A program made the translations under genes and the position numbers. From Myxococcales bacterium (GTDB lineage Bacteria > Myxococcota_A > Polyangia > Palsa-1104 > JAEUJZ01), in assembly GCA_016794505.1 (NCBI GenBank), contig JAEUJZ010000076.1, positions 192,001-219,181 of the forward strand: a stretch of 27,181 bases of DNA. Reading direction: 5' to 3'. Under the pieces are notes generated by a model. The model did no database searches and had not been told where the DNA came from. It was given only the letters and a program-made list of their open reading frames with translations. This document shows, piece by piece, positions 272-18,737 of this stretch. Numbering within the stretch: the stretch's first letter is position 1; the number at the start of each line of letters is the position of its first letter.

Positions 272-1319
272 AGCCAAGGTCGGCCCCGTGTCCCGCCGCG
301 ATGTGACCGACGCGTCGCCATGGCGACGCAGCGTCGGCCAAGATGGTCTCGGCGTGCTGTGGCGAAAGCACGACCAAAAAACCCAGGCCCATATTGAACG
401 TGCGGGCCAGCTCGGTTTCTTGCACGTAACCCAAGCGCGCGATCACATCGAAGATCGGCGGTCGCGCATACGAGTGTGGGTCGATAAGGATGCGCTGGTC
501 TTCGCGCACGAGCTTTTCGGCACGCCCCAGCAGACCGCCCCCGGTGATGTGCGCCGCAGCTTTGATGCGCACGCGGCCAAGCAGCGCCAGCACGGGCTCG
601 ACGTATAGCAGCGTGGGTTGCAGAAGCTCTGCCCCCAGCGAGCGATCGAGTCCGGGGAGCGTTTCACGATAGTCCAGTCCAGCCTGGGCAATGACGCGGC
701 GAACCAGCGAAAATCCGTTCGAGTGAACACCGCTCGATGGCAGCCCCAGCACGACATCGCCCACCTCGACATCGCCGCTTGGTACCTGCGCTTGATCGAC
801 CAGGCCTACGGCAAAGCCGGCTAGATCGCAGTCGCCGGGGTCATATAGATCCGGCATCTCTGCGGTCTCTCCGCCCAGCAGCGCGCAGCCGACTGCAGCA
901 CATGCGTCGACGATGCCCTGCGCCAGATCTAGCAGAGGCACCGCGGCTGCATCGGCCTCGCCGCTGGCCGAAAGCGCGATCTTGCCGACGGCCAAGTAAT
1001 CCAGAAAGAACAGCGGGCGGGCTCCGCGCGGCAGCAGATCGTTGACGTTCATCGCCACCAAGTCTTGCCCCAGCCCGCGATACGATCGGCAGGCTCGTGC
1101 GACCAGGATCTTGGTGCCCACCCCGTCGCAGGTTGCCGCCAGAAGCGGCGTGCGCAGCCCGGAAAGTGGTAAGCGGAAGAGACCGGCATAGGCATCTCCG
1201 CTGGGCAAGACGTCTGCGGTCTTGGTGCGCTGGGCCAGCTTGGAAATGGCACGGGCAAAGGCGTCTCCCGCTGCGATGTCGACGCCGGCATCACGATAGG
1301 TCAGAGGCAGCGTGCTCAT
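258..1319 (-). CDS. purM: Phosphoribosylformylglycinamidine cyclo-ligase (AIR synthetase, PurM)
   Basis: 353 aa, N-terminal LTYRDAGVDIAAGD, the typical PurM start, followed by the PurM/AIRS fold. The start overlaps the purF stop (ATGA at 1316-1319). Confidence 0.93.
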   Translation of the reverse strand: MSTLPLTYRDAGVDIAAGDAFARAISKLAQRTKTADVLPSGDAYAGLFRLPLSGLRTPLLAATCDGVGTKILVARACRSYRGLGQDLVAMNVNDLLPRGARPLFFLDYLAVGKIALSASGEADAAAVPLLDLAQGIVDACAAVGCALLGGETAEMPDLYDPGDCDLAGFAVGLVDQAQVPSGDVEVGDVVLGLPSSGVHSNGFSLVRRVIAQAGLDYRETLPGLDRSLGAELLQPTLLYVEPVLALLGRVRIKAAAHITGGGLLGRAEKLVREDQRILIDPHSYARPPIFDVIARLGYVQETELARTFNMGLGFLVVLSPQHAETILADAASPWRRVGHIAAGHGADLGYAQS

Positions 1320-2770: not shown

Positions 2771-5075
2771 GGGTCCCCGCGCTGCGCTGGGTGGACGTGC
2801 GTGCGGCATCTGGCGCATTGCCCCTCCAGGCCGTGCGCAGCTCGCGCATCGTCAGCGCGCCATGGCCGACAAGCTGGAAGTCGCTGCCGCCCACTTCGCC
2901 CAGCACGTGATAAGGCACTGCGTGTACATCGGCAAGCTGGCGCAGCGCTGCAACACGCTGTCGATCGAGCCACGCCAGAACCTGCGCGGGCTGTTCGCCA
3001 AATGCTTGAAAGTGTGGACGCGGACTCGCGGGCAAAGACAGCGCGGCCCCGATGTCGCTGCGCAGGCAGAGCTTGGCGAGCGCGATCACAAGACCTCCCT
3101 GCGTGACCGCGGACAGACCGGCGACGGCATCCGCGGCGATCAGCGCACACAGCAAGCGAGCCACGCGCTGCTCTGCCGAAAGATCACAGCGCGGCGAGCC
3201 CACATCGCTGCCATAGCGCAAGCGGGTGTATTGGGCAGCGCCAGGCTCATCGGACAACTCGCCGAGCACGAGCAGCGTATGGCCTGCCTGCAGCCGCGCC
3301 CGCGGCACCTTGCGAACATCGGGCACCACACCCAGCGCACCGACCATTGGCGTCGGTGGGATGGGGCCGCGCGGCGACTCGTTGTACAGCGAGACATTGC
3401 CCCCCGTGACCGGCACACCAAGCTGGCGCAGGCCATCGCCCAAGCCAGCGATCACCTCGGCGATGCGGCGATGTTCGATGGGATCACGCGGCGATGCGAA
3501 GTTGAGCCCATCGGTGATGGCGAGAAGCTCGGCACCGACGCAGGCCAGGCGGCGTGTGGCTTCAGCCAAAGCCGCCTGCGCACCGCGATATGGATCAACG
3601 GCACACAGATCGCCGCGGCCAGAAAGCGTCAGCGCAACACCGCGCATGCTGTCAGGCAAGCGCAAGACCGCGGCCGAAGCCTGCCCTGGACCGCAGACGG
3701 TGCGGTTGCCAACGGTCTGATCGAACTGCGAATAGATCGGCTCGGCATCCGCGCACTGCGCCAGCAACTTCTGCAGTGTCGTCAGCAGCGGCTCGTGCGG
3801 CGTGTTGTGATCAGCAGGCAGCTCGGGAAGCGGTGGCAGCGCAGCCGCGATGGCAAAGCGACTCGCGGGTGCCCCACCTGCGACCAAGCGCGCCGGCAGA
3901 TCGATGCAGACGCTCTGCTCTTTGCGCACCCGCACGCGCCCGCTGTCCGTCAAGACTGCGATGGCGGCTGCCGTCAGGCCGACGGAGCGAAAGTGCTCAA
4001 GAGCTGCCGGTACGTGCTCGGGCTGCACCACCAGCGCGAAGCGCTCTTGCGATTCAGAAAGGAAGATCTCAAGCGCGGTCATGTCGGCTTCGCGCAGCGG
4101 CACCGACGAAAGATCGACGTCCATTCCCACGCCGCCGAGCGCTGCCATCTCGAACGTCGCGCAGGCAATGCCGCAGGCGCCCAGGTCCTGCACCGCCACC
4201 GGGCCTAGCTCGGCAGGAAACGACAGCACGGCCTCCATCAGCAGCTTGCCGGCGAATGGATCGCCCACCTGGATGTGCGAGCGGCGTGTGCGGTTTTGTT
4301 CCTGCGAGCCCAGCGCCTCGCTGGCAAACGCGGCTCCCAAAATTCCATCGCGTCCGGTGGCCGCCCCGACCAGCAGCACGACGTTGCCGGTTCCGTGCGC
4401 GCGTGCCGTGCGCTGCGCATGCGGGCGGATCAGACCCGCGGCCAGCGCGTTGACGAGCGGGTTGCCTTCATATCCTGGGTGGTGCTGCGTGCGTCCGCCA
4501 ATATTGGGAATGCCGATGGCGTTGCCATACCCCGCGATGCCAGCCACCACCCCGCGCTGGATGCGCGCGGTCTGCGGGCTCTGCGCGTTGCCAAAGCACA
4601 GAAAGTCGAGCAGCGCACACGGTCGCGCGCCCTGGGCGATGACATCGCGCAGGATGCCCCCCACGCCCGTTGCTGCGCCCTGATATGGCTCGACGGCGCT
4701 GGGGTGATTGTGGCTCTCGATCTTAAACGCCACAGCCCAGCCCTCGCCGACATCAACGACCCCCGCGTGACTGCCGGGTCCAGCCAAGACACCGCGGCCT
4801 TCTTTCGGCAGGGTCGCAAGCAAGTGGCGCGTCGACTTGTATGAACAGTGCTCGCTCCACATGCCCGAAAAGACAGCAAGCTCTTCGTGCGTGGGGATGC
4901 GTTCCAGCGCGCTGCGGATCGTCTGATACTCGTGCGGCAACAGCCCCATCGCTTCTGCCAAGCGCGCTGCGGATCCTTCATCGTGCTCGTCGCGGTCAAG
5001 CCGTCGCGCGTCCAGGTCCGCCCCTGCGCTGCTGTGCGCGGGCTGCGCATCGTGTTCTCGTGTGGCGATCGTCAT
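2760..5075 (-). CDS. purL: Phosphoribosylformylglycinamidine synthase subunit II (small-type PurL)
   Basis: 771 aa with FSGMWSEHCSYKSTRHLL and duplicated AIRS-like domains, which is the split-type PurL. The start overlaps the purQ stop (ATGA). Confidence 0.94.
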   Translation of the reverse strand: MTIATREHDAQPAHSSAGADLDARRLDRDEHDEGSAARLAEAMGLLPHEYQTIRSALERIPTHEELAVFSGMWSEHCSYKSTRHLLATLPKEGRGVLAGPGSHAGVVDVGEGWAVAFKIESHNHPSAVEPYQGAATGVGGILRDVIAQGARPCALLDFLCFGNAQSPQTARIQRGVVAGIAGYGNAIGIPNIGGRTQHHPGYEGNPLVNALAAGLIRPHAQRTARAHGTGNVVLLVGAATGRDGILGAAFASEALGSQEQNRTRRSHIQVGDPFAGKLLMEAVLSFPAELGPVAVQDLGACGIACATFEMAALGGVGMDVDLSSVPLREADMTALEIFLSESQERFALVVQPEHVPAALEHFRSVGLTAAAIAVLTDSGRVRVRKEQSVCIDLPARLVAGGAPASRFAIAAALPPLPELPADHNTPHEPLLTTLQKLLAQCADAEPIYSQFDQTVGNRTVCGPGQASAAVLRLPDSMRGVALTLSGRGDLCAVDPYRGAQAALAEATRRLACVGAELLAITDGLNFASPRDPIEHRRIAEVIAGLGDGLRQLGVPVTGGNVSLYNESPRGPIPPTPMVGALGVVPDVRKVPRARLQAGHTLLVLGELSDEPGAAQYTRLRYGSDVGSPRCDLSAEQRVARLLCALIAADAVAGLSAVTQGGLVIALAKLCLRSDIGAALSLPASPRPHFQAFGEQPAQVLAWLDRQRVAALRQLADVHAVPYHVLGEVGGSDFQLVGHGALTMRELRTAWRGNAPDAARTSTQRSAGTHVS

Positions 5076-5800
5076 GCCGACTCCTGGCTCGTCAAGAACT
5101 GCCGAGCCGATTGAAACAGCGCTGCGCCATCGTCCGATCCCAGGACCGCTTCGCAGGCTCGCTCGGGATGCGGCATGATGCCGAGCACGCGACCGCTGTC
5201 ATCGAGCACCGCCGCGGTATCTGCCAGCGAGCCGTTGGGGTTTTCGCAGTAGACCAGTGGCACGCGCGTCGCGATCACGTCGTCCCCTTGCGGATGGACA
5301 TAGCGACCTTCGGCATGCGCGATCGGCATGCGCAGCCGGTCGCCTACGCGAGCCTGCCCAAACCACGGGCTCTGGTTTCGCAGGGCAGCCGGCGTGACCT
5401 CGACTTCGATCCAGCGATGCACGAAGCGCGGTGGCTGATTGTACGAGAGCGCCCCCGGCAAGATCCCCGCTTCAACGAGGATCTGAAAGCCGTTGCACAC
5501 GCCGATCACCAGCCCCCCTGCGGCGAGCCACGCTGGCAGCGACTGCACCGCGCGAGCGCGACTGGCCAACATGCCGGCCCGCCAATAGTCGCCGTATGAA
5601 AAGCCACCCGGTAAGCCGACCAGATCGACATCGGCTGGCAGCGCCATGTGGGCCGGATGAAGGCGCGCTGAAAAGCCCGACAGGTTCAGCGCCTCTAGAA
5701 GATCGCGATCTCCGTTGCTGCCCGGAAAGACCACGACTGCTGCGCGTGGAGTACGACCGCGACCGCGGCCGGAATCATTCACAGCCGCGGCCGGGGTCAT
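5072..5800 (-). CDS. purQ: Phosphoribosylformylglycinamidine synthase subunit I (glutaminase, PurQ)
   Basis: AAVVVFPGSNGDRD...GVCNGFQILVEAGILPG is a class-I glutamine amidotransferase with the catalytic Cys in the GVCNGFQ motif. The true start may be a later codon than the ORF-track M. Confidence 0.9.
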   Translation of the reverse strand: MTPAAAVNDSGRGRGRTPRAAVVVFPGSNGDRDLLEALNLSGFSARLHPAHMALPADVDLVGLPGGFSYGDYWRAGMLASRARAVQSLPAWLAAGGLVIGVCNGFQILVEAGILPGALSYNQPPRFVHRWIEVEVTPAALRNQSPWFGQARVGDRLRMPIAHAEGRYVHPQGDDVIATRVPLVYCENPNGSLADTAAVLDDSGRVLGIMPHPERACEAVLGSDDGAALFQSARQFLTSQESA

Positions 5801-6081
5801 GGCTGACCTTCCCGGTACACGGCAGACGCCGCGGGCTTGGCAGCCGACCGCAGCACATAGGTCTCAAGCAGAGGATTCACCAACATGCCTTCACAGACAG
5901 CACGCGCCTTGGCTGCCGCTTGCTCGCTGTCGGCTTCGTCGACAGACAACAGCAAAAAGCGTCCAACCGACTGCGCGCTGCAGCCGTCATAGCCGCTGTC
6001 ATGCATCGCAGCCGAGATGGCATCCGCCTGTGGATCGCGCACACCCGGCCGTGGCTGCACGATGACTTCAAAGTGCGTCAT
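5797..6081 (-). CDS. purS: PurS subunit of FGAM synthase
   Basis: The ORF track gives a 146-aa ORF. The conserved ~94-aa PurS core begins at the internal Met, MTHFEVIVQPRPGVRDPQADAI...VNPLLETYVL. The ATG at 6079-6081 overlaps the purC TGA (ATGA coupling). Confidence 0.85.
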   Translation of the reverse strand: MTHFEVIVQPRPGVRDPQADAISAAMHDSGYDGCSAQSVGRFLLLSVDEADSEQAAAKARAVCEGMLVNPLLETYVLRSAAKPAASAVYREGQP

Positions 6082-6818
6082 GCGACCTCTTGATGCGAAA
6101 AGGCGGGCACTTGCAGAGCTGGTATTTTTTCCAGTCGCGCAAGCAGCGCCGCGTAGGTTGGCACTAGCTCGGCAAGGTCTTGGCGAAAGACGTCTTTGTC
6201 GAGCACTTGACCGCTGTGAACATCCCGAAAGCGGCACGTGTCCGGCGAGATCTCATCGGCCAGCCACACCCTGCCATCGGCACGCCCGAACTCGAACTTC
6301 AGATCAAACAGCGCCACATCGGCTTGCAGAAACAGCGTGCGCAGCGCCTGTGCTGCGGTCAAAGCCAAGCTGCGCAGCGTCGCAAGCTCAGCCGGCGACG
6401 CGATGCCAAGCAGCCGCACATGATCGTCGTTGATCAGCGGATCGCTGAGATCATCGCGCTTGTAATAAAGCTCGCAAACCGGCGGCGTGCAGGGATGCCC
6501 GTACGGCAGTCCGGTTCGCGTACAAAGCGAGCCCGCCACTGCGAAGCGCACGACCACTTCCAGCGGAATGATCTCGACCGCGCGGCAGATCAGCGTGCGC
6601 TCATCTTTGCGCTGCACAAGATGCGTAGGAATCTGCTCGCGCGCTAGATACGCCAGCAATCGCTCGCTGATGCGACAGCACAGCTCTCCTTTGCCGGGAA
6701 ATGTCGCGCGCTTCTTGCCATTCCCCGCTGTCGCGTCGTCCTTGAAATAGATCTCGGCCAGTCCATTGGGCAGCAGTCGGACCTGCTTGGCTTTGCCCTC
6801 GTACAGATCATCTCGCAT
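6078..6818 (-). CDS. purC: SAICAR synthetase (PurC)
   Basis: MRDDLYEGKAKQVRLLPNGLAEIYFKDDATA is the typical PurC N-terminus, 246 aa. An AAGGAAG Shine-Dalgarno lies 9 nt upstream of the ATG. Confidence 0.93.
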   Translation of the reverse strand: MRDDLYEGKAKQVRLLPNGLAEIYFKDDATAGNGKKRATFPGKGELCCRISERLLAYLAREQIPTHLVQRKDERTLICRAVEIIPLEVVVRFAVAGSLCTRTGLPYGHPCTPPVCELYYKRDDLSDPLINDDHVRLLGIASPAELATLRSLALTAAQALRTLFLQADVALFDLKFEFGRADGRVWLADEISPDTCRFRDVHSGQVLDKDVFRQDLAELVPTYAALLARLEKIPALQVPAFSHQEVA

Positions 6819-7028
6819 GCACGCTGTCTTCCTTGCGAAGCGCTGCGTTGTTTGCCGTGAGATCGCGCAACCTTTGCACGCCGCGGTGAGTGCATCCCGC
6901 GCTGTGTTTTGTTGCGCGCAATGGGTGCTTCATCGGCCTTTCAAAGTCAAGTGACGTTTTTGTTTCTGAAGGAAAAAAAACGGAACGCGCTTGACGCAAG
7001 CCACCGGAACTCGCTAGAAGCACGCCCC
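6819..7028. promoter_or_regulatory. Divergent intergenic control region between purC (minus) and pyrD (plus); candidate sigma70-like promoter for pyrD and candidate purC promoter
   Basis: The region has an A8 run at 6973-6980. On the plus strand TTGACG (6991-6996) is followed by an 18-nt spacer and TAGAAG (7015-7020). On the minus strand TTGACT is followed by ~17 nt, upstream of purC. Hexamer assignments are weak. Confidence 0.3.
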
Positions 7029-8087
7029 GTGAGCGAACCAACTGCACGTGTGCTGAGTTCCTCGCTGCCCGCTTTCGATCGCGCCGATCATCGCGAGATC
7101 ACGGAAGCGTCAGCGGATCCTGGTTTGCCGCTGCGCTCTGCGCCGCGCGACCGTTCTTTAAGTGAACGCGATCCGTTCTTTGCACTGTCGGCACGCAGTC
7201 CGCTGTGGGCGGCCGCGGGTCCATGGTCAAGCGGCGAACAGAGCGCGGATGCGCTGTCGACAGCCGGTGCGGTGGTCGCCAAGACCGTCACGGCAGAGCC
7301 ACGAGCCGGCAATCCTCCGCCCGTCTTACACAAGTATGCGGGTGGAAGTGGCGGCTATCTGAATCGCATTGGCCTGCGCAATGTCGGTGCCGCCGAGTTC
7401 GCGCGAGCGCGCTTGCCGATTGTGCGCGCCTGCAACGCGCCAACGATTCAGAGCTTCACCGCACAGACCGAAGCTGAAGTCGAAGCGATTCTGCAGGTGT
7501 TCACACCCGAAGCCATCGTGGGATATGAGCTCAATGCCTCGTGTCCCAATGCTCCCTCGGGTCAGCTCGATGATGCGGTCTTGCGAGCGGTGCTGCGCTG
7601 CGCCCGTCGGCTTTCGCCGCGGCCGATCTGGGTCAAGCTTGCCTATGCACCGGCCGAGCTGTTGCGGTCCCGAGCTCGCATCTGCGCCGACGAAGGTGCC
7701 GATGGCATCACCGCCATCAACACCCTGCCTGCGCTGGCCGTGACGCTGCCAAGCATCGACTCTGCGCAGCGCAAACCCGATGATCCCTTTTTGTTTCGCG
7801 GGGGCGTGTCAGGTCCTACGCTGACGCCGCTTGCGCAGTGGGCCGTCGACTTCCTGGTGCGCGAGCAGCCGCTGCCTGTGATCGCCTGTGGCGGCGTCGG
7901 ATCGCTGCACGAGGTCTTGGCCTTTGCCGCGCTGGGAGCGAGCGCCGTCCAAGTGGGCTCGGCCCTGCTCGATGACGCGACCGTGCTGCGCCGCTTGCAG
8001 CGCGAGCTAGCGCACGCCGCGCAGCGCGCCCAGATCACATCGTGGAATGAGCTCGTCGAGGTCCTATGTCCGCACAAGCGAAGCTAG
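7029..8087 (+). CDS. pyrD: Dihydroorotate dehydrogenase, class 1 (Cys active-site base), catalytic subunit
   Basis: GNPPPV...GGYLNRIGLRNVG...ELNASCPNAP...PIWVKLAY...ITAINTLP...GGVSGP...IACGGVGS match the class-1 DHODH motifs. The ORF-track start at 6909 is TTG. The core begins near DPFFALSARSPLWAAAG. I chose the in-frame GTG at 7029, with GTG 7050 as an alternative, so the start is uncertain. Confidence 0.85.
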   Translation: MSEPTARVLSSSLPAFDRADHREITEASADPGLPLRSAPRDRSLSERDPFFALSARSPLWAAAGPWSSGEQSADALSTAGAVVAKTVTAEPRAGNPPPVLHKYAGGSGGYLNRIGLRNVGAAEFARARLPIVRACNAPTIQSFTAQTEAEVEAILQVFTPEAIVGYELNASCPNAPSGQLDDAVLRAVLRCARRLSPRPIWVKLAYAPAELLRSRARICADEGADGITAINTLPALAVTLPSIDSAQRKPDDPFLFRGGVSGPTLTPLAQWAVDFLVREQPLPVIACGGVGSLHEVLAFAALGASAVQVGSALLDDATVLRRLQRELAHAAQRAQITSWNELVEVLCPHKRS

Positions 8088-8899
8088 CCATCGGCATGTC
8101 GCAGCGCGGACCGCTGTGCATTGGCCTAGATCCCGATCGCGATCGCCTGCCCGCCTGCGTGCGCGGTGATGTTGCCGTCTTCTTGCGCGAGATCATCGCC
8201 ACCACAGCCGATATCGCATGCGGCTTCAAGATCAACAGCGCGTTTTTCGAATCGATGGGTCTTGATGCGAGCGGTGAAGGCCACGTGCTTGCGAGCACGC
8301 GCGCGGCCCTGCCTTCTTCTGCTCTCTTCATCTGGGACGGCAAGCGCGGCGACATCGGCAACACCAATCGCCACTATGCCCACGCCGCGTTTGAAGTGCT
8401 GGGGGCCGATGCGGTGACAGTGCATCCGTATCTTGGCCTTGAGCCACTTGAGCCCTTCCTGCGCTACCGCGAGCGCTTGACCTTTGTCTTGTGCGCCACC
8501 AGCGAAGGATCACAGATGCAAGACCTTTGCATTTCTGATCGCGAAGGCGAAGCGATGGCGCAGCCGCTGTGGCAGTGGGTCGCGCGCAAGGTCGCGCAGC
8601 AAAGTGACGGTCAGTGCGGCCTGGTCGTCGGGGCAACGCAGCCCGAGCGCTTGGCCTGGGTGCGCAAGGTCGCTCCGCAGCTGCCGCTTTTGGTGCCGGG
8701 CGTCGGCGCGCAGGGCGGACAGATCCCGGCACAAGGAAGTGGAGCCCCCCTCTTGATCAACGCCTCGCGCTCGATCTTGTACGCGAGTGCGGGCCCTGAC
8801 TTTGCTGCGGCGGCACGCGCCGCTGCCCTGTCCCTGCGCACGGCGTGTGTCAACGCATCCGTCGCATCCGCGATCGCGCCGAACCCTGTCTCTCACTAA
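8066..8899 (+). CDS. pyrF: Orotidine-5'-phosphate decarboxylase (long/type-2 form)
   Basis: 277 aa with LCIGLDPD...KINSAFFE...WDGKRGDIGNT, giving the PyrF Asp-x-Lys-x-x-Asp and K..DIGNT motifs. It overlaps the pyrD 3' end by 22 nt. Confidence 0.88.
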   Translation: MSAQAKLAIGMSQRGPLCIGLDPDRDRLPACVRGDVAVFLREIIATTADIACGFKINSAFFESMGLDASGEGHVLASTRAALPSSALFIWDGKRGDIGNTNRHYAHAAFEVLGADAVTVHPYLGLEPLEPFLRYRERLTFVLCATSEGSQMQDLCISDREGEAMAQPLWQWVARKVAQQSDGQCGLVVGATQPERLAWVRKVAPQLPLLVPGVGAQGGQIPAQGSGAPLLINASRSILYASAGPDFAAAARAAALSLRTACVNASVASAIAPNPVSH

Positions 8900-8913
8900 C
8901 GAGGTCTTCGCCC

Positions 8914-9513
8914 ATGTCGCTGTCCGCTGTTTCGTCCGCTCAAGAAGTCGAGGCGCGCTTGCACGAAACCGGAGCCTTGCTGCACGGTCACTTTCTTTTG
9001 AGCTCGGGCCTGCACTCCGATCAATACATTCAGTGCGCACGCTTGCTGTCGTATCCACAGCACGCCGAGTTCGCCGGCAAGGCCCTGGCCGCAGCCTGTC
9101 GCGAGCGTGGACTCCAGCCGATCGACGTCGTGTTGGGACCGGCACTCGGCGGCATCGTGATCGCGCATGAGGTTGCTCGCGCACTGGGGGTACGGGCGCT
9201 GTTTGCCGAACGGGAAGCCGGCGCGCTGACCCTGCGCCGCGGCTTTGCGATGTCGCCTGGTGAACGCGTGCTGATTGTCGAAGACGTCATCACCACAGGG
9301 GGCTCTGCCGTCGAGACCGCCACCCTGGCGCAAGCGCACGGCGCGCGGATCGCAGGCTACGCCGCAATCGTAGAGCGCGGCAGCGACCATGGCTTGCAGC
9401 CGCTGTGCGCACTGTGGCGTGTGCGACCGCAGGTCTTCGCAGCCGAAGCCTGCCCCCTGTGCCAAGCCGGCAGCCCGGCCATCAAGCCCGGCTCGCGCGG
9501 ACCCAAGCCGTAG
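8914..9513 (+). CDS. pyrE: Orotate phosphoribosyltransferase
   Basis: LIVEDVITTGGS is the PRPP-binding motif of type-I PRTases, with OPRT-like length and context. I chose the ATG at 8914 (MSLSAVSS...), which follows GAGG 9 nt upstream. The ORF-track start at 8845 lacks an RBS. Confidence 0.88.
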   Translation: MSLSAVSSAQEVEARLHETGALLHGHFLLSSGLHSDQYIQCARLLSYPQHAEFAGKALAAACRERGLQPIDVVLGPALGGIVIAHEVARALGVRALFAEREAGALTLRRGFAMSPGERVLIVEDVITTGGSAVETATLAQAHGARIAGYAAIVERGSDHGLQPLCALWRVRPQVFAAEACPLCQAGSPAIKPGSRGPKP

Positions 9514-9845: not shown

Positions 9846-10171
9846 ATCCGCCCGCCCATCTTTGTTTAGGTCCGCTGCAAGAACCCTTCGGCAAGACGTC
9901 GTGTTCGGCTTAATTCATGATGCTTTGTGCAGTGCGGTGAAGCGCTCGGGCATGCATGTTTGGACTCCCACTTGATGTACTCACGACGAGCACACAGACC
10001 CCGTGTCGGCGAAAACATGCCGGGTGCGGCAGCGCAACGAATGGAATCTAGGGCGCCACCCAATCGACATGGAAAACGCATCTCCGGCGATTCCGGTCGG
10101 AACGTACTGGCAGTTGTCCGCTTTCCTTCAGTCCGGTAGACCAACGTGCAGGCCAATGGGCCCATTGCGCC

Positions 10172-10946
10172 TTACAGGAACATGCCTCCTGAGATCTCGA
10201 TGCGCTGGCCGTTGATCCAGCGGTTTTCGTCCGACAGCAGCGAGGCCACGGCGGCGCCGATGTCGTCGGGCACGCCCACACGACCCAGTGCCGTCTGTCC
10301 CGCGATAAAGGCGTTTAGCTGCGGGTTGTCGCGCACCTGGCCCCCGCCGAAGTCGGTTTCGATCGCACCGGGGGCGACGGTGTTGACGGCGATGTGCCGG
10401 CTGCCTAGCTCTTTGGCCAGATAGCGCGACAGGACCTCGATCGCGCCCTTCATCGCGGCATAGGCGGCATACCCTGGCATCGCGAAACGAGCCAAGCCGC
10501 TCGACAGATTGACGATGCGTCCACCATCGGCAAGAAGCGGCAGCAGGGCCTGGGTCAGGAAGAAGGGGCCCTTGAAGTGAACATTCATCAGCTCATCGAA
10601 CTGCGCTTCGCTAGTCTGCGCGAAAAGCGCGTGGTGACCGAGGCCCGCATTGTTGACCAGAAAGTCCAGTTGTTCGCGTCCCAGCGTGGTGCGCAGCGCC
10701 TGCCGCAAGGACGTGACGAAGCCTGCAAACGACGCGACATCGCCGACATCAAGCGGCAGCACTACGGCTCGCCGCCCCAACGCCTCGACTGCGGCGACCA
10801 CGGCATCGGCATCGGCCTGGGCGCGACGATAGGTGAACACGACATCAGCGCCGCGCTTGGCAAGGTGCAGCACGGTGCTCTTGCCCAGTCCGCGACTGCC
10901 GCCTGTGACCAGAGCAATCTTGGGGAACTCCGATGAACTCGACATA
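10172..10946 (-). CDS. Short-chain dehydrogenase/reductase (SDR) family oxidoreductase
   Basis: The N-terminus reads KIALVTGGSRGLGKS, a TGxxxGxG Rossmann motif, and the length and pattern are SDR-like. I prefer the second ATG at 10946, because AAGGAG lies 6 nt upstream. The ORF track starts at 10963. Confidence 0.88.
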
Positions 10947-11042
10947 TGAGGCTCCTTTTGCATGTGTTTTCGACGGCAGACGCGCTTCGCAGGCCCGCCA
11001 TGACAAGCAGTCTATTGTTCTTCATTGCTGCCATAAACCAGG

Positions 11043-11072
11043 AAGAATTGATTTCACTGTTCAAGAATTGAT
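11043..11072. promoter_or_regulatory. Candidate LysR-type operator in the SDR/LysR divergent intergenic region
   Basis: A TTGA-N9-TCAA dyad sits at 11047-11063, matching the T-N11-A architecture. The 10-bp direct repeat aagaattgat occurs at 11043-11052 and 11063-11072, two helical turns apart. Confidence 0.35.
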
Positions 11073-11084
11073 AACAATAGGCTG

Positions 11085-12020
11085 ATGATGAAGTCCGTGG
11101 ATGCCATGCGGGTGTTCGCGCGCGTTGCCGAGCTGGCCAGCTTTACGCTGGCCGCCGACAGCCTGGGCCAGCCCAAGGCCAGCGTCTCGCTGGCTGTGCA
11201 GCGACTGGAAAGCGAGCTCGGCACGCGGCTTCTGCACCGCACGACGCGCCGTGTGCAGCTCACGCAGGATGGGCAGGTGTTCTATGAGCGCTGCCGCGAT
11301 CTGCTGGTCGATCTCGATGAGCTTTACAACCTGTTTCGCAACGACGGGCAGGCGCTTACCGGCCGCCTGCGCGTCGATATGCCCGTGGGGGTGGCGCGCG
11401 ATGTCGTGCTGCCGCACCTGCCGGCATTCCTTTCGGCCCATCCCGCGTTAGAGCTAGAGCTTTCAAGCACTGATCGTCGCGTCGATCTGATCCGCGAGGG
11501 CTTCGACTGCGTGCTGCGCGTCGGCACGCTCGGCGAATCGAGCCTGATCGCCCGGCCGTTGGGGCAGTACCGCATGATCAACTGCGCCAGCCGCAAATAC
11601 CTGGCTCGCTGCGGTCGGCCGCGGCGTCCCGCCGATCTGCACAAGCACCGCATGATTCATTACGCTGCGACGCTCGGCAGCCGCGACAGCGGCTTTGAGT
11701 ACGTCGACCCAAAGAACCCTGAGCGCATCGTCACGGTCTCTGTGCCGGCAGCGCTCACCGTCAATAACTCGGATGCCTACTACGGCGCCTGCGTGGCCGG
11801 ACTCGGCATCATCCAGGTACCAGAGCCCGGCGCACGCGCGGCCCTCAAGGCCGGTCGGCTCGTCGAGATCCTGCCGCGATATCGCGCTGCACCGATGCCG
11901 GTCACGCTGCTTTACGCCAACCGCCGACACCTGCCGCGCCGCGTCCAAATGTTCATGAGCTGGCTGGAAGCGCTCTTGCGCCCACGCTTGACCAAGCTCT
12001 CGGCCGCCGCAATCGGCTAG
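11085..12020 (+). CDS. LysR-family transcriptional regulator
   Basis: An N-terminal wHTH (MRVFARVAELASFTLAADSLGQPKASVSLAVQRLESELGTRLLHRTTRRVQLTQDG) is followed by a LysR substrate-binding domain. The gene is divergent from the SDR gene. Confidence 0.9.
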   Translation: MMKSVDAMRVFARVAELASFTLAADSLGQPKASVSLAVQRLESELGTRLLHRTTRRVQLTQDGQVFYERCRDLLVDLDELYNLFRNDGQALTGRLRVDMPVGVARDVVLPHLPAFLSAHPALELELSSTDRRVDLIREGFDCVLRVGTLGESSLIARPLGQYRMINCASRKYLARCGRPRRPADLHKHRMIHYAATLGSRDSGFEYVDPKNPERIVTVSVPAALTVNNSDAYYGACVAGLGIIQVPEPGARAALKAGRLVEILPRYRAAPMPVTLLYANRRHLPRRVQMFMSWLEALLRPRLTKLSAAAIG

Positions 12021-12258
12021 GACTGCGCGCTTGCGTCAGGCAGCGATGGGAGGATCCTGCGCAGGTCGCTGGGCAGCGACAATTTTGTCCGGCTCGTCGT
12101 CAAATTCCTGAAGGGTTCTCGCAGAATAGAGTGCCCGCCATGCGCGAGTCCGACCGCAGTCCACCCGACTGGTATCCGCGTCGAGCCTTCATCCGAGCTT
12201 TGCGCCGCGTGGGCCCGCCGTGCTGCGCGTGGCATGTCCGTTGCTGTGGCATACGAAA

Positions 12259-13167
12259 ATGAGACCATCCCTGCGATTCATCGCCTGCCTTCTTTTGGTG
12301 TCCGTGGTTGGTACGTCGTCCGCAAGGGCAGCGGGCATCCAAGCAGAGACGCACGCAAACGAGCAGCGCGTGTCGTTTGCCCTAGGTGACGCCGGCATCC
12401 TGGTAGTCGATGACGGCGCACCCGCCGCCGAGCGCGTGCTGGCCACGCTGCCACTTGCTGCGCCCCTTTTTGATCTGCTGTTCATCGACAATCGCTTGTA
12501 TGTGGCGCGCGGTCCGGCTGGCATCACGGTGATCGATGTCAGCGATCACATGCGGCCCGTTGAGCTGTTCAGCTTCGGCAGCAACCACGCGCCCATCAAG
12601 CTCAGTCGTCAGGGCTCTTCGCTGGTGGCTGTCGACGATCGTGGCAACAAGGTGGCCTATGATCTAAGCCGGCGCGATACACCGCGACTCGTGCCGCCGC
12701 CGCAGCCGCCCGCACCGCCGGGAGAGAGAGCAGCATTCGCTTCGTTCCATCCAGCGGATGATCCGCCAAGGGACGTAGCGGTTCGTTTCATCGCGGCGGG
12801 TTCATCGCTGTTGGCAAGCAGTCTGATCGTCGCGGCCGTTGGCGCACTGCTGTTTGCTGCGAGCGACCAAGCCATCGCGCAGGATCGGCAGCGCCAGCAA
12901 GAACGGCAAGCTGCGTGCAAGCAGCGCATGGAGAGCGTCTGCGGCTGGTTTTATTTCTCGCTCGCCGGTCTGCCTGAGCTAGCGGCCGGCTACATCGTCG
13001 TGGGCCATGCCGTCCTGCGCAGCGCCGTGTCGATTCCGATCCTGGCGGTAGGACTGCACAAGCTTCGGCGATCTGCGACGGTGCGCCCGGTCGTGGCTTT
13101 CTTACCAGGCGCGCCTGCTACAACGCCGGGCGTGTTGGTCGGCGCGAACCTGGGGCTGCGCTTCTGA
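12259..13167 (+). CDS. Hypothetical secreted/membrane protein with LVIVD-like beta-strand repeats, a Pro-rich linker and two C-terminal TM helices
   Basis: A signal peptide (MRPSLRFIACLLLVSVVGTSSARA) is followed by the repeats ILVVDDGAP, ITVIDVSD and LVAVDDRGN, then PPPQPPAPP and two hydrophobic segments. No family was recognised beyond the repeat pattern. Confidence 0.55.
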   Translation: MRPSLRFIACLLLVSVVGTSSARAAGIQAETHANEQRVSFALGDAGILVVDDGAPAAERVLATLPLAAPLFDLLFIDNRLYVARGPAGITVIDVSDHMRPVELFSFGSNHAPIKLSRQGSSLVAVDDRGNKVAYDLSRRDTPRLVPPPQPPAPPGERAAFASFHPADDPPRDVAVRFIAAGSSLLASSLIVAAVGALLFAASDQAIAQDRQRQQERQAACKQRMESVCGWFYFSLAGLPELAAGYIVVGHAVLRSAVSIPILAVGLHKLRRSATVRPVVAFLPGAPATTPGVLVGANLGLRF

Positions 13168-13386
13168 GCCATCCTGCCATCGCTGCAACGTCGACTAAAG
13201 GGCGCTGAACTGTTGCCGCAACAGCCCCGCATCGGACGAAACGTTCGCGCCTGCCCGACGCGGCTTTTGGTGCAGCGACCTCGATGAAGACGGCGCGATC
13301 TGGCCAGGCATCGCTGCATGCGGCGGTCAGGCCTGAAACGCAGGCTGCAAAGGGGCCAAACAGGGACCGCAGAGTCACCGCGGGCT

Positions 13387-15166
13387 TCAGCGCGAGGATG
13401 CATGGGCTACGCAGTCCTCGGCCGTGGGCACGCGGGGGATGACGATGTTCGTGTTGTTGGGATCGAACTGCGCCGGCAAATGGCAGCGAAGGAACGCCGC
13501 AAGCTGCTCGGGCCCGCGCGCTTCGGGCGAGACGTCCCATATGCGCGCCGTCTTGTCCCAGCTCGCGGTGACGATGCGCCGACCATCCGGGCTATACATC
13601 GCGCCCACCACGCTGCCCCCGTGGCCCATGAGAACGGCCTTGGGAGCGCCTGCGGCGTGGACTGTACTCGCGAGCAAGTCAGGCAGTGCCGCATCCTTGC
13701 TGCCTTCCGCCTGGGCTCGATGCAGCCAGAGCAGTCCTTCACTGGGGTTGCCGCGCTCAAAGACCAGCTGCCTGCCGCGCTCCACATACTCCAGGTGCGC
13801 AGCGCCGCCCAGTGATCGAACAGCGCCTCGTGCGTGACCTCGGCCAGAGGCTCAGCCCCGTCGCCGCTCAGCGTCACCAGGCGCGCCTGTTCGGTGGCAA
13901 ATTTTCGCAGCACCCCGAGCACACGCGCTTCCGTCTCGCCCCGCCCGCACAGCTCAGAAATCGGAGCCCGACGCCGCGTGTCGCGCGTGCCTTCGCCGAG
14001 CCGCACCAAGCGCACCAGCGCCCGCTGCGCCGTCGCTTGCTTGCTCGGATCGAGCTGGTTGCAGATCGCCTGCGCCTTGCCGGCCAGCGCACCGCCGACG
14101 CCGCCCATTTTTCGCAGCGTCTCGCCGGGCTCTTGGCCTGCGTGCATGCCCTCCCAAATGTTCGTCAGCGCAAACTCAAGCAGCGGCAGCGTGCCTTCGT
14201 TGCCCCAAGCCTGATCGAGCAGCAGCTCGACCGTCGCATCGTCGATCGGCTGGCCGGCTTGTGCGGCGGGCTCTGTGATGGCCTGGCGCAGCTCGTCGCG
14301 GTTCATCGCCGTCACGATGACTTCCTGCGCGCCAATCAAGCGATGGAGCTCGACGTGATGGCGGTGCGTCTCACCCAGGAAGTCGCTGCGCAGCGTCAGC
14401 ACGATCGACACATGACGGCTGCGCGCGGCGGCGGCGTGAAGCAGGACACCGATGAAGGCCTCGCGCTCGTCCTTGTGGCTGCACAGCGTGTAGACCTCTT
14501 CAAGCTGATCGACCAACACGACAAACGGCGACCGCTCGACGCCGGGCCGACTCGCCGCCCACTGGCTGAGCCCATCGAATTCGCCGCGCCCATTGGGCTT
14601 GCGCAGAAAGTCGGCCAGGTCCCGCTGCGCCGATAGCTCGGCTGCCGTCGCCGGATTGTGGCCCGGTGGCAAGAGCGCCATCGCCAGCACGCCGACCGGA
14701 TGTTCCCCGGCTTGAACGCGATGGACTGCAGCGGATCCGGCCCCGGAATCGGCGCGGTCTGAAGCTCGGCCAAAAGCCCCGCTCGCGCCACCGACGACTT
14801 GCCCGAGCCCGACGGCCCCAGCACCGCCAAAAGCCGCGTCGATCCCGCCTGCTCGTACAGCGCCTTGAAGCGCTGCCAAAGTCGCTCGGTCAGCTCGTCG
14901 CGGCCAAAGAACAGGTCGGTCTCGTCGACTTGGAACGCCGACAGCCCACGATACGGATTCTTCGCGGCCTGGCCCGCTGCCGACCGAGGCGACAAGAGCA
15001 GCCGCTTGTGCCGCGCAGCGCGTCGCGGATTCCTTTTCGAAAGGGCCGCGACCAGCTCTTCGCCGTCGACGATCTGCCGTTTATGGGCTCGGCTGCGTCC
15101 CGTGGCTTCGCAGCGTTCACCTCGTCCGCCCCATCGGCCTGACTGCTGTGTCCGCTCTCTGGTCAT
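13387..15166 (-). pseudogene. Degraded STAND (NACHT-like) NTPase with a single C-terminal WD40 repeat, disrupted by two frameshifts and truncated
   Basis: Three consecutive reading frames carry successive parts of one protein. Frame 1 (ORF 14396..15232) has NPYRGLSAFQVDETDLFFGRDELTERL...LAVLGPSGSGKSSVARAGLLAEL, i.e. Walker A. Frame 2 (ORF 13407..14879) has HRVQAGEHPVGVLAMALLPPGHNP...VVLVDQLEE (Walker B-like)...LPLLEFALTNIWE...EALFDHWAALRTW. Frame 3 (ORF 13387..13785) has ERGRQLVFERGN...LMGHGGSVVGAMYSPDGRRIVTASWDKTARIWDV, one WD40 repeat, then a stop. The frame switches fall near 14725-14740 and near 13790. Confidence 0.6.
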
Positions 15167-15725
15167 TCTTGCAAAATATCTGCATTCATATTTGAATATT
15201 AAAATCAAACCCATAATTAGTTTACTTGCCATACATCACCTGCAATTCACGATGCGCCATGTAGTAATTTACATAAATATAATATCTCCAATAAAACTCT
15301 ATCGACTCTACACGGGATCCACTATCTGCATTTGACAGGAAAAACCAAGCGGCTCCACAGGGTCTCATTTCGGCAATGATCTCGCGACTTCGCTCTAGAG
15401 CGTTTGCTCCATCCGCCGACATTACCGCCAGGGAGGTCCACCGACAGAGTGGCTTGCCTTGCAATGTTTGCACAGATAAACAAATCATCCACATTGATTA
15501 TTGAAACGGATAGGCATGTCACTAATAACATTCTTCATACATTCCAGATAAATCAGGATTATTTTCAATGATAAATTAACGTGTGAATCGACACAAAAAA
15601 CAGAACCCAGCGGCCGCGTACGACCGCAGGCCATGCCGAGCTTGGGGCGCGCACGGCCGATACGAAAAAAGGATTTTGATACTGTCTAAAACAAGCTACG
15701 ATAGGTTCCTATGAGGAGTATTGGC

Positions 15726-16265
15726 ATGCGACATGGTGAGATCCTGCCTGTTGTATTTTCGCTGAGTATGACCGCTTGCTTTGGGATGTTTGGGGACTCA
15801 AGCAGAGACGAGGCGACCCCAGGGCGAAGCCGCTTTCCCATCAGACCACTGCCGCGGGTCGCGATGGAAAACCCCGCGCTGCTCGATGCCGCCATTCGGG
15901 GGCTAAACCCGTCGGATAAGGAATATCAGCTCTTCCATGCCCACATCGCGAGCCAGCCAAGGTACATGCGGCACCAGATGTCCGGGCAGCTTATAGCCCG
16001 ATGTTACGACTTCGCCCTCGTCTACCACACCCGCACGACGCCGCCGGCCTGCCACTGGAGCGTCTTTCGACTCTGCCAAGAACACCTGGGCAACGGCACC
16101 TTTGCCGAAGAGCTGACCGTCCCCCGCCTTTCAATCGCCATCGCCTCCGGGGGAATCGAGTGCAACAGCCCCGAATTGCCGCCAGGGGTTGCTCCGAAGC
16201 AGCCTCCTCCCGCGGCGACGGCACCCGCGGCGACGGCACCCGCGGCGACGGCACCGCCGCAGTAG
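15726..16265 (+). CDS. Small secreted or lipoprotein-like hypothetical protein with a C-terminal (ATAPA)3 repeat
   Basis: GAGGAG lies 6 nt upstream of the ATG at 15726 (the ORF track starts at 15711). The N-terminus MRHGEILPVVFSLSMTAC is a hydrophobic h-region ending in Cys, a non-canonical lipobox. The C-terminus reads AATAPAATAPAATAPPQ. Confidence 0.5.
   Translation: MRHGEILPVVFSLSMTACFGMFGDSSRDEATPGRSRFPIRPLPRVAMENPALLDAAIRGLNPSDKEYQLFHAHIASQPRYMRHQMSGQLIARCYDFALVYHTRTTPPACHWSVFRLCQEHLGNGTFAEELTVPRLSIAIASGGIECNSPELPPGVAPKQPPPAATAPAATAPAATAPPQ
16212..16256. repeat. 15-bp perfect or near-perfect tandem repeat x3 (gcggcgacggcaccc) inside the 3' end of the CDS above
   Basis: Direct reading: gcggcgacggcaccc gcggcgacggcaccc gcggcgacggcaccg. 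It encodes the ATAPA repeats. Confidence 0.9.
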
Positions 16266-16294
16266 GCTCAGGCACTGGCAGGCCGACCCGCCTT

Positions 16295-16369
16295 CATCCC
16301 CTGCTCCGTAAGCACGCTGCATCCCTTGCTCTGTAAGTACGCTGCATCCCTTGCTCCGTAAGCACGGCC
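16295..16369. repeat. 25-bp tandem repeat x3 in the non-coding region downstream of the lipoprotein gene
   Basis: The copies are catcccctgctccgtaagcacgctg / catcccttgctctgtaagtacgctg / catcccttgctccgtaagcacggcc, with few mismatches. Confidence 0.85.
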
Positions 16370-16378
16370 GCTTCTTTT

Positions 16379-16407
16379 CTGTCTGCTCTGTCGAGACTCG
16401 CAGACAG
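16379..16407. terminator. Stem-loop (8-bp stem ctgtctgc/gcagacag, 13-nt loop) between convergent genes; no U-tract
   Basis: Seen directly in the sequence. It lies between the 3' ends of the + lipoprotein gene and the - FG-GAP gene. It lacks a T-run, so it is at best a non-canonical terminator. Confidence 0.25.
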
Positions 16408-16550
16408 CCAAGCGCTTCGCGACCGCTCCATTGCCACATAAAATCGCGCTGCCGTTCCGCGTGTTCCGCGCCGCGCAACGACGAATCCCGGTCCTGACCT
16501 GGCCCGGCGCCGCGCGCTCTGTGGGTGCAGCTCGCAGAGGCTTAATTCGG

Positions 16551-18737
16551 TCAGGCGTCCGCTGCGACGAGCTGGTCGGTCGGCATGGGCAGGGGGGTGC
16601 TGGCGGACTGAAGAAGGGTCGTGCCGCTGTCTGGAAGCTGCAGCCAGATGAGCTGGCTTGTCGCTTGGGTGTTGAACACAGCGACGAGCTCGCGCTTGCC
16701 TTGGCCGCGGAAGTCGCCGACGGCGAAGTCGCTCAACGTCGCTCCGGGCAGGGATGCAAGCGAGAACGAAAACTGGCTTCCCCCCAGGGGCCGATCCGTG
16801 GCGCCCAGATACGCGCGTAGCTGCTGTGGCTCGCCAAGAATCAGATCCGTCAGGCCGTCGCCGTTGAGATCTGCGAGTCGAATCATGCGACTCGCCGGAG
16901 GCAAAAACCACGGCAGGAAGTTCGCGTCGGGCGTTACGAATGCGCTCTGAAAAGAACAGGGCTGCGTCTTCACGCCGAGTAGGAACCACAGCTTGCCATC
17001 GTCGCTGCGCGCCACAATGTCTGGAGCGCCATCGTTGTCGATGTCGCCGACTTCTAGCTGTCCGACGGGATCGGGCACCACAGCGAGCTGGCGCGTTCCG
17101 GGTTGGCCGCTCAGCGTGACCAGCTCGACGGCGCGGTTGGCGTTGGCTCCGATGATTTGTGTGGGCTGATCCGCGCACTGGATCGTGGTGGCCGTTACAA
17201 ACGGCATCGATACCGTCTGCGAGCTGGGGCAGCTAAACCCTTGGTTGCCATCGGGGCCGCAGCGCAGAACCAGGCTGGCGCCGCCGCTTCCAGCCACGGC
17301 AAAGTCGCTGCTGCCCGCCGCGGCAAACGAGCCCGAAAGCACGATGGCGTCGGGGTTGTTCGTGCCGTCCCGACGGAAATCAAACGGCAGGGTAAAGCTT
17401 GCGGTGGCGCCGCCCTGATTGCGGGCGATCGACAGCGTTGCGCCCTCGCTGCTGTCATTGAAGACGACGATGTCATCGCGCGAGCTGCCCACGGCAAAGT
17501 GCCCGGTCACCACGTGCTCGCCGATCAAGCTGCGGTTCGCGATGCGCGCGGGCGCGCTGGCCCAGCCGCCGCCGCCGGCATAGACCGAAAGAAAGCCATA
17601 GGCATGCAGCACCACCAAGTCGTCGAGCTGGTTGGCAACCGAGCCGCTAAGCAAGCGCCCGACCGCAATCTTTCCTTTGTTGGGCGGCCGGTAATCCAAG
17701 TCATACGTGGCAAGATTGATAACGTCTTTGTTTATGACGTTGCTCTCAACAGATTGAAAAATTTCAAGATCTTGCGGGCCGCTGACAACGACTGCGTCGT
17801 AATTGGTGGGATTCCTAAAATGACCGACTACAACGTCCGATGCTCTGTTGCTAACCACAAATGACATGATCGTGGGAAGATAATTTGCGGCAAATCGAAT
17901 CTTTCCTAAACGACCATCCGCGCCACTGCCAGAGGAATACGATATCAATATGTCTTGCGTATTCACCGTGGCATTTCTATATGCAGGAACCGCCATGGAA
18001 GTTGGAACATAACCAGAAAATTCGGCATCTGAGATGATCGATCTTGCGCGCTCATATCCCATTGGCATTTTATTTGCCAGTATATCAATTCCATTTGAAA
18101 TATAAGCAACAGCAATATCTTTTTTGTTATCGCCATTGAAATCACCAATGGCTATGCCGCGCGGTTCGGATACCAGCGCAGGGACAGCGGGGGCAGCTTG
18201 CTGATTGCCCATGATCAGATCGACGTAGGCGTTCGTACCAGAGAGCACCACGGCGACGTCGTCCTTGCCATCGTCGTCGATATCAGCGACAGCGGCCATC
18301 TCTGGATTTCGCCCAGGCTGACTGTAGTTACCAAAACTAATAACTGGAGAACCTGCCGATGGGTTCATAATTTTCGTATATCTCTTTTTTCCCATCACAA
18401 AAATGTCATCAAGACCATTGCCATCAAAATCTCCGCGATAGAGAAGTCCCTGTTCTGAAGTCATTATGTCGTTGATTTTTTCAATCGACAACAGAGCTGG
18501 CGCAATCAGCTCCACTGGACTATATGGCAGTGTTCCACCATCGCTACCACCATCAACCATATCGGCAATATCGGCCATGACGCAGCGATGCAATGACTCA
18601 TGACAACGCATCCCAGCCATGCACCTTCCATCATTCGGCTCACAGTAATCAGGATCTTGCTGACTGAGGCCACCGAATAAATGTTCACAAGCCACTGCCA
18701 GAAAACACGAAAACACGAATAACGTTCGATACCGCAT
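16551..18737 (-). CDS. Large secreted protein or lipoprotein with multiple FG-GAP (integrin-alpha-type beta-propeller) repeats and an N-terminal Cys-rich module
   Basis: The signal peptide is MRYRTLFVFSCFLAVAC. A Cys-rich stretch follows: CEPNDGRCMAGMRCHESLHRC. At least 6 Ca-binding FG-GAP motifs are present: GDFDGNGLDDIFV, ADIDDDGKDDVAVV, GDFNGDNKKDIAVA, GDIDNDGAPDIVA, ADLNGDGLTDLIL and GDFRGQGKRELVAV. AGGAGG lies 5 nt upstream of the ATG. The 5' third of the gene has visibly lower GC. Confidence 0.85.
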   Translation of the reverse strand: MRYRTLFVFSCFLAVACEHLFGGLSQQDPDYCEPNDGRCMAGMRCHESLHRCVMADIADMVDGGSDGGTLPYSPVELIAPALLSIEKINDIMTSEQGLLYRGDFDGNGLDDIFVMGKKRYTKIMNPSAGSPVISFGNYSQPGRNPEMAAVADIDDDGKDDVAVVLSGTNAYVDLIMGNQQAAPAVPALVSEPRGIAIGDFNGDNKKDIAVAYISNGIDILANKMPMGYERARSIISDAEFSGYVPTSMAVPAYRNATVNTQDILISYSSGSGADGRLGKIRFAANYLPTIMSFVVSNRASDVVVGHFRNPTNYDAVVVSGPQDLEIFQSVESNVINKDVINLATYDLDYRPPNKGKIAVGRLLSGSVANQLDDLVVLHAYGFLSVYAGGGGWASAPARIANRSLIGEHVVTGHFAVGSSRDDIVVFNDSSEGATLSIARNQGGATASFTLPFDFRRDGTNNPDAIVLSGSFAAAGSSDFAVAGSGGASLVLRCGPDGNQGFSCPSSQTVSMPFVTATTIQCADQPTQIIGANANRAVELVTLSGQPGTRQLAVVPDPVGQLEVGDIDNDGAPDIVARSDDGKLWFLLGVKTQPCSFQSAFVTPDANFLPWFLPPASRMIRLADLNGDGLTDLILGEPQQLRAYLGATDRPLGGSQFSFSLASLPGATLSDFAVGDFRGQGKRELVAVFNTQATSQLIWLQLPDSGTTLLQSASTPLPMPTDQLVAADA

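Follow-up and report, generated by a model that had tools for sequence, protein, structure and literature searches.

Identity of the remnant and its reading frames

On the minus strand of a 27,181-nt stretch of a Myxococcales bacterium genome (contig JAEUJZ010000076.1; this whole stretch is hereafter called the window), three overlapping open reading frames (ORFs) lie in three different frames (14396–15232, 13407–14879, and 13387–13785, as given by six-frame translation), and the question which this locus raises is whether they are the debris of one gene, a functional arrangement, or a fault of the assembly. The initial annotation treated them as one protein that can be followed through three frames, namely a decayed STAND nucleoside triphosphatase (NTPase) with WD40 repeats. 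Both parts of this view were borne out, and we consider it highly probable that the locus is a genuine, recently inactivated, multi-lesion pseudogene of an nSTAND1-WD40 STAND NTPase.

Translated in the order of transcription, the first piece reads ...DGEELVAALSKRNPRR...NPYRGLSAFQVDETDLFFGRDE...GPSGSGKSSVARAGLLAEL...AFKPG, the second EHPVGVLAMALL...VVLVDQLEE...LPLLEFALTNIWE...FDHWAALRTW, and the third (E)YVERGRQLVFERGN...GHGGSVVGAMYSPDGRRIVTASWDKTARIWDVSPEARGPEQLAAFLRCHLPAQFDPNNTNIVIPRVPTAEDCVAHASSR-stop; there are no internal stop codons within any of them. When joined, they give a conceptual protein of 594 aa, residues 71–466 of which match the Pfam family nSTAND1 (PF20703) in a single stretch (profile positions 1–357 of 379, E = 1.2e-97, 328.4 bits against a gathering cut-off of 27.1). 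As this match runs across the first two pieces as one stretch, the three-frame, single-protein pattern is far beyond chance. Both motifs of a P-loop NTPase are present, i.e., Walker A (GPSGSGKSS, consensus GxxGxGK[ST]) and Walker B (FVVLVDQLEE, consensus hhhhD with acidic residues after it), and one WD40 repeat was detected (Pfam, E = 1.5e-8). The NTPase had been described as NACHT-like, which should be corrected to nSTAND1: Pfam NACHT (PF05729) gave no match to the conceptual protein at E ≤ 0.1, where only weak nSTAND3, AAA_16, and AAA_22 matches accompanied nSTAND1. An NCBIfam scan of the same protein returned nothing useful.

Neither of the two modules is whole in the window. The NTPase module is not an uninterrupted ORF, since a 1-nt deletion lies inside it and a 367-nt deletion cuts it at profile position 357. 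WD40 β-propellers typically close with seven blades; the single WD40 stretch of the window compares with five in the intact homologue P0001, at least seven in the homologue P0002, and at least five in contig L007. The third ORF (13387–13785), which has a GTG start and encodes 132 aa, was nevertheless deposited as a stand-alone hypothetical protein (MBL9005710.1/JNJ46_15750).

Intact relatives and the architecture of the parental gene

A protein search identified an intact homologue (P0001, 908 aa, 76% identity), the gene of which lies in contig L002 and is collinear with all three pieces of the window. It is composed, in this order, of an N-terminal domain of ~95 aa, nSTAND1 (profile positions 1–378 of 379), a linker of ~120 aa holding a hydrophobic (transmembrane) helix (SLGAVAAIIIVLLVAASVYLV), five WD40 repeats, and a tail (...LPEQLAAFIRCHLPVQFDPTNKNILIP...). 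Another retrieved protein (P0006, 424 aa, 99% identity) corresponds to the same middle ORF with its out-of-frame tail and comes from another assembly.

An intact gene in the same genomic position was found in contig CAZKOY010000345.1 (L010) of an uncultured Myxococcales metagenome-assembled genome (MAG), which holds the 5′ part of a syntenic orthologue. Its DNA is 93.6% identical to window positions 15077–13790, the sole gap being one G in a homopolymer (G5 in L010, G4 in the window), and it is read there as a single ORF, which starts with ATG (MPNSLRFDRSSLRKLLGAVLPTASDLEAFCVDCFPDVAARF...), passes through KPGEHPVG, and continues (...FDHWAALRTWIEQGRKDRG...LSLGAVAA) up to the contig end. Beyond ALRTW, the point where the second piece of the window stops matching, this ORF runs into the linker and the transmembrane helix (...ALRTWIEQGRKDRG...LSLGAVAA). 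The synteny extends upstream, as L010 positions 1–858 align with window positions 16241–15379 at 81% identity, so that the upstream neighbour and most of an AT-rich patch are shared. On the other side, contig L006 (from the same MAG as L010) and contig L007 (from another sample) both keep the convergent 302-aa neighbour (90–91% identity), and in both of them it adjoins the 3′ end of a WD40 gene bearing the same tail; in L007 at least five WD40 blades precede the contig end.

At the N-termini of the relatives, the sole consistent family was EAD7 (PF19960), matched in five of eight proteins below the gathering score (best E = 1.1e-4; 17.7–18.5 bits in two scored tables, against a cut-off of 32). 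A profile built from the N-terminal domains of these eight relatives (95 columns) is covered by the window only at positions 56–95 (E = 2e-7). Judging from these sequences, the parental gene encoded a membrane-spanning STAND NTPase consisting of an EAD7-like adaptor, nSTAND1, a linker with a transmembrane helix, a WD40 propeller, and a conserved C-terminal tail.

Four lesions in the window copy

Alignment of the conceptual translation and of the DNA with the intact homologues (P0001, L010, and L002), which had been suggested as a check in the initial annotation, gave the exact sites and sizes of the lesions. The resulting features are collected in Table 1.

Table 1. Features of the pseudogene remnant in the window
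Feature	Position	Strand	Basis or remark
Whole pseudogene remnant	13387..15184	-	window-specific 5′ segment to native stop codon
85-nt segment, missing from the intact L010 locus, present in L001; holds the ATG at 15166 that opens the piece-1 ORF (MTRERTQQ...)	15100..15184	-
5′ deletion junction, ~215 nt gone	15078..15079	-	L010 comparison and N-terminal domain profile
Piece 1: last ~40% of the EAD7-like domain and nSTAND1 start (NPYRGLSAFQVDETDLFFGRDE), ends ...AFKPG	14709..15077	-
Walker A/P-loop GPSGSGKSS, piece-1 frame	14792..14818	-	translation
Frameshift site between KPG and EHP: G4 in the window, G5 in L010 (AAGCCGGGGGAACA) and in the homologue L002	14705..14708	-	1-nt deletion
Piece 2: remaining nSTAND1 (EHPVGVLAMALL...FDHWAALRTW), second frame	13790..14707	-
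Walker B region FVVLVDQLEE, piece-2 frame, out of frame with Walker A	14496..14525	-	translation
Junction of the 367-nt out-of-frame deletion	13789..13790	-	L002 gene positions 1454–1820
Piece 3a: pre-propeller linker remnant (YVERGRQLVFERGNPSEGLLWLHRAQAEGSKD...APK), third frame	13639..13789	-
Single chimeric WD40 blade (AVLMGHGGSVVGAMYSPDGRRIVTASWDKTARIWDV)	13531..13638	-	3′ half matches the orthologue's final blade; 5′ half runs on from the linker
Native conserved C-terminal tail, 47 codons (SPEARGPEQLAAFLRCHLPAQFDPNNTNIVIPRVPTAEDCVAHASSR)	13390..13530	-	homologous to the C-terminus of intact relatives
Native stop codon TGA	13387..13389	-

The lesion at the 5′ end was absent from the initial annotation. 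Here, L010 positions 1071–1285 are missing from the window, i.e., a 51-nt leader, the ATG at 1122, and codons 1–55 of the EAD7-like domain. At the junction, the shared motif GACGCAGCCGAGCCCA(T/C)AAAC directly abuts GCAGATCGTCGAC. Short-query BLAST found no source for the adjoining 85-nt segment in the window, L002, L006, L007, or L010, and according to a repeat search around the locus, neither the gene nor this segment is flanked by IS-like inverted repeats. The missing N-terminal and linker segments gave no significant match elsewhere in the 27-kb window (relaxed tblastn, and the profile of the eight N-terminal domains against all six frames), and the profile search did not detect any second copy of the N-terminal domain there.

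The second lesion is of the homopolymer type that the initial annotation had called informative, although it does not lie near 14725–14740, where the first frame switch had been placed. The alignments with L010 and L002 locate it in the G-run of Table 1, which reads AAGCCGGGGAAC in the window and AAGCCGGGGGAA in both relatives; the G4 variant is also present in contig L001. Because of this one lost G, Walker A and Walker B stand in different frames.

The other frame switch had been positioned correctly, near 13790, but it is not a small indel, and thus the proposed pair of frameshifts comes down to one 1-nt frameshift and one out-of-frame deletion. In comparison with P0001, 367 nt (3 × 122 + 1) are missing at exactly 13790|13789. 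The loss shifts the frame and takes away ~122 codons, which covered the end of nSTAND1 (~20 profile positions) as well as the linker and the transmembrane helix. A CTGGA microhomology, visible at this junction against L002 alone, might be speculated to have taken part.

The fourth lesion removed, again in comparison with P0001, 504 nt (4 × 126) of WD40 blades in frame. The gene had been considered truncated after one blade, with no coding sequence beyond; in fact, after ...ARIWDV there are 47 more codons of the native tail before the TGA, and the blades were lost by a deletion internal to the gene. Over its 3′ half, the surviving blade agrees with the last L007 blade in 60 of 63 positions, while its 5′ half is no closer to the last blade than to the others. 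Recombination or slippage inside the conserved YSPDGRRIVTAS core would be expected to leave such a chimeric blade.

Selection and timing of the decay

For the three frames compared with P0001, the ratios of non-synonymous to synonymous substitution rates (dN/dS) were 0.18, 0.13, and 0.20, and the comparison with L010 gave 0.24 (48 synonymous and 34 non-synonymous differences, dS = 0.156). Values of 0.13–0.24 in all three frames mean that all of them were once coding and that the decay is recent. Purifying selection thus acted on the three frames for most of their history, and the lesions, as distributed among the compared sequences, are younger than the split from the L010 lineage and older than the divergence of the strains represented by the window, L001, and L124 (the last two are assemblies from other samples, described below). 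At least four independent lesions, including a contraction of the WD40 array, fall within a dS of ~0.16 from a lineage which kept the gene. The locus is a clean, small example of fast loss of putative conflict/sensor STAND genes in myxobacteria. Its wider meaning is small: the nSTAND1-WD40 family is already known, the remnant is an ordinary pseudogene, and what is concerned is annotation hygiene (a pseudogene fragment deposited as hypothetical protein MBL9005710.1) rather than any new question.

Weighing of other explanations

That the organism has an intact gene, the frame changes and missing blades of which are errors of metagenome assembly, was a suspicion voiced in the initial annotation and is now very improbable. 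The window derives from a MAG, one lesion sits in a homopolymer, and tandem blades with exact stretches in common (at most 29 nt for L007, 54 nt for L002) can be collapsed by an assembler that uses de Bruijn graphs; however, both of these arrays were resolved by the same kinds of assembler (the at least five blades of the sister lineage in L007 by a Logan assembly), and the 215-nt and 367-nt deletions show no association with repeats. Moreover, the lesions recur in assemblies from other samples. L001 (Logan, DRR438501) covers window positions 11954–16565 at 99.3% identity, differs by 17 substitutions and one unit of a 15-nt repeat, and still has all four lesions (the G4 run, the two deletion junctions, and one blade only). 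L124 (ENA, MEGAHIT k141), which covers 13319–13887 at 99.65% and has two single-nucleotide polymorphisms (SNPs) of its own, and L003 (Logan, SRR12425356), which is 100% identical over 9870–14192, share the 13790|13789 junction and the single blade; a further contig, L005 (98.6%), ends at window position 16455, short of the pseudogene. Since assemblies from other samples, two of them with their own SNPs, carry every lesion that they cover, sequencing error is ruled out; in detail, it is excluded for the first three lesions and unlikely for the fourth.

It should also be considered whether the locus might still function by recoding, with slippage at CCGGGGA restoring KPG-EHP, or through separate products such as the 132-aa ORF. 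If the ribosome slipped by −1 on the G4 run, exactly the ancestral KPGEHP would result; furthermore, the ATG at 15166 within the novel 85-nt segment opens piece 1 in frame, the pieces are free of internal stops, the third ORF has its GTG start and an annotated coding sequence, and dN/dS is still low. Nevertheless, the sequence AAG CCG GGG AAC is off the X XXY YYZ slippery pattern, and in both L010 and L002 the run is G5 and the ORF continues without a break; as the sister lineage has such an uninterrupted ORF, the split arrangement is derived and not a conserved design. Ribosomes that had slipped would, in addition, cross 13790|13789 into a 128-codon out-of-frame tail ending at 13407, so that two recoding events would be needed, and the product would lack half of the adaptor domain, the transmembrane helix, and at least four blades, with one blade being unable to form a propeller. 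We regard this explanation as having a slight chance at best. An equally slight chance is given to the idea that one or more fragments are expressed and retained as decoys or regulators of intact nSTAND1 paralogues, or that a doubly recoded “mini-STAND” is made. The candidates might be the P-loop piece from the ATG at 15166 and the 132-aa ORF with its single blade and tail; the low dN/dS and the lack of stops inside the pieces fit such retention, without showing it. Finally, the three frames could be imagined as unrelated, neighbouring or overlapping short genes in their native arrangement, in line with the deposited annotation, where at least the third ORF is a coding sequence of its own, but one nSTAND1 match spans pieces 1 and 2, L010 reads 93.6%-identical DNA as one ORF, and P0001 is collinear with all three pieces, which makes this the least probable explanation of all, hardly to be credited.

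Several points weigh against the pseudogene interpretation or limit its precision. The dN/dS is still low (0.24), i.e., relaxed selection is not yet visible in the substitutions. The sizes of 367 and 504 nt are measured on P0001, which is 76% identical and not the true ancestor, the part of the sister lineage between the transmembrane helix and the first blade having not been recovered; a metagenome contig scan with the linker, blade, and tail gave no close orthologue (best 65%). The evidence for the lesions consists of assembled contigs rather than of read-level or expression data, and as all of the compared sequences, the window included, are metagenome assemblies, a collapse of blades could in principle recur, which concerns the fourth lesion only. 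The biological role of the intact family comes from comparative genomics only.

Proposed mechanism and comparison with known systems

The nSTAND1 proteins form a clade of STAND NTPases with EAD1/2/7/8 or effector domains placed N-terminally, and the layout of an N-terminal EAD and a C-terminal sensor was described for nSTAND1, NACHT, and MNS proteins (Kaur, Iyer, Burroughs & Aravind 2021, eLife, PMC8195603). By analogy with STAND switches and with the EAD principle (Kaur et al. 2020, PMC7159879, and 2021, PMC8195603), the intact family would act as a switch of the Apaf-1/NLR type. Its WD40 propeller would sense a cue, probably on the other side of the membrane from the NTPase, to judge by the transmembrane helix, the nSTAND1 module would oligomerise in an NTP-dependent manner, and the EAD7-like domain would recruit an effector bearing a matching domain.

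In the course of decay, the ~215-nt 5′ deletion, which the 85-nt segment adjoins, took away the start codon together with half the adaptor domain, and the change from G5 to G4 put the Walker motifs into different frames. The 367-nt out-of-frame deletion cut out the linker and the transmembrane helix, and in-frame recombination between blades probably left the one chimeric blade, unable to close a propeller. These hits, at least four in number, were independent and all followed the sister-lineage split. With every step of the putative switch disabled, the window copy is read as a pseudogene, and a functional product is not expected from it.

The NTPase module of the window resembles the nSTAND1 clade in its score, in the NPYRGLxxF...FFGR(D/E) start, and in both Walker motifs (GPSGSGKSS and VVLVDQLEE), and in the intact relatives of the gene an EAD7-like domain stands at the N-terminus and a sensor of the WD40 or FGE-sulfatase type at the C-terminus. 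The window copy, in contrast, is spread over three frames and lacks the start codon, half of the EAD, the last ~20 profile positions, the linker, the transmembrane helix, and all but one blade. The order of an adaptor or effector, a STAND NTPase, and a repeat sensor is shared with Apaf-1/NACHT-WD40 (NWD) proteins, bNACHT, and Avs, and there is a sequence match between the P0001 blades and the propellers of Apaf-1. However, the NTPase of the window is neither NACHT nor AP-ATPase by Pfam, and the family has a transmembrane helix between the NTPase and the propeller. The defence-protein models of PADLOC-DB v2, which cover antiphage STAND systems such as Avs and bNACHT, gave only weak mad3 and mad8 matches (18–21 bits, P-loop region) and assign the family to none of the known defence systems. 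A PDB sequence search returned WD40 proteins only, and the NTPase module had no relative among the solved structures. The fourth lesion is akin to the instability of tandem WD40 arrays, as the number of nucleotides lost in frame is exactly divisible by the 126 nt of the unit and the chimeric blade has its putative crossover in the YSPDGRRIVTAS core, but in this case the contraction leaves one blade beside other inactivating lesions and does not yield sensor diversity.

The C-terminal tail and tandem relatives

The tail that follows the last WD40 blade (~45 aa, PEQLAAFLRCHLPAQFDP...) does not belong to any Pfam family. It was matched, however, behind arrays of WD40 repeats in many metagenome contigs from soil and peat (loci L044–L123, roughly 45–65% identity, query residues up to ~116), and it may represent an undescribed conserved C-terminal module.

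On contig L002 (1–597 and 913–3639), a second WD40 gene, which shares the conserved C-terminal tail, has its end 315 nt upstream of the P0001 gene, and the gene family therefore occurs in tandem arrays on this contig. In the window, minus-strand positions 13292–13372, just 3′ of the stop codon, contain a frame (TLRSLFGPFAACVSGLTAACSDAWPDRA) weakly resembling residues 12–38 of the N-terminal domain (tblastn, 44% over 27 aa), although the profile match is not significant (6 bits, E = 0.45). As L002 has a second gene in tandem, this segment might be what is left of a tandem paralogue that was lost, for which the match falls short of significance.

Neighbourhood and AT-rich patch

The AT-rich patch upstream of the pseudogene (GC about 0.45–0.52), noted in the initial annotation, does not point to foreign DNA, as it is conserved upstream of the intact orthologue in L010. 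At its edge there are only the 5′ deletion and the 85-nt window-specific segment, and the patch is ancestral intergenic/promoter DNA together with a small low-GC gene, and no evidence of a foreign insertion. Neither Rfam families nor tRNAs were detected anywhere in the window, and there is thus no known RNA gene or tRNA integration site in the patch. A promoter/terminator scan indicated two weak, uninformative promoter-like sites in it (15587–15558 and 15305–15276).

The window also contains a compact pur block (purM, purF, purL, purQ, and purC-like) with pyr genes (pyrD, pyrF, and pyrE-like) at 258–9513, which places the pseudogene beside the core chromosome. Further neighbours recognised with Pfam (locus tags JNJ46_157xx) are an SDR protein, a LysR regulator (MBL9005708.1), and a 315-aa hypothetical protein convergent with the pseudogene, whereas upstream there are a 184-aa hypothetical protein, an FG-GAP protein, a PEGA-domain protein, a 7TMR-DISM Ser/Thr kinase, and an FHA-sigma54 activator.

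Two kinds of tandem repeats were noted in the upstream part. At 16209–16255, a 15-nt repeat (CCCGCGGCGACGGCA...) encodes the C-terminal PAATA repeats of the 184-aa ORF (15711–16265, plus strand); it has three copies in the window and four in L001, which is the sole indel between these assemblies. Between this ORF and the FG-GAP gene, in their convergent intergenic region, three tandem 25-nt units (CTTCATCCCCTGCTCCGTAAGCACG, 84–100% identical) lie at 16292–16366, unchanged in L001 and with no Rfam match. The 5′ half of the 728-aa FG-GAP/VCBS-repeat gene (16551–18737, minus strand) has a GC content of 0.46–0.53 at 17500–18500, compared with ~0.65 for the window, and forms a second AT-rich stretch besides that at 15100–15900.

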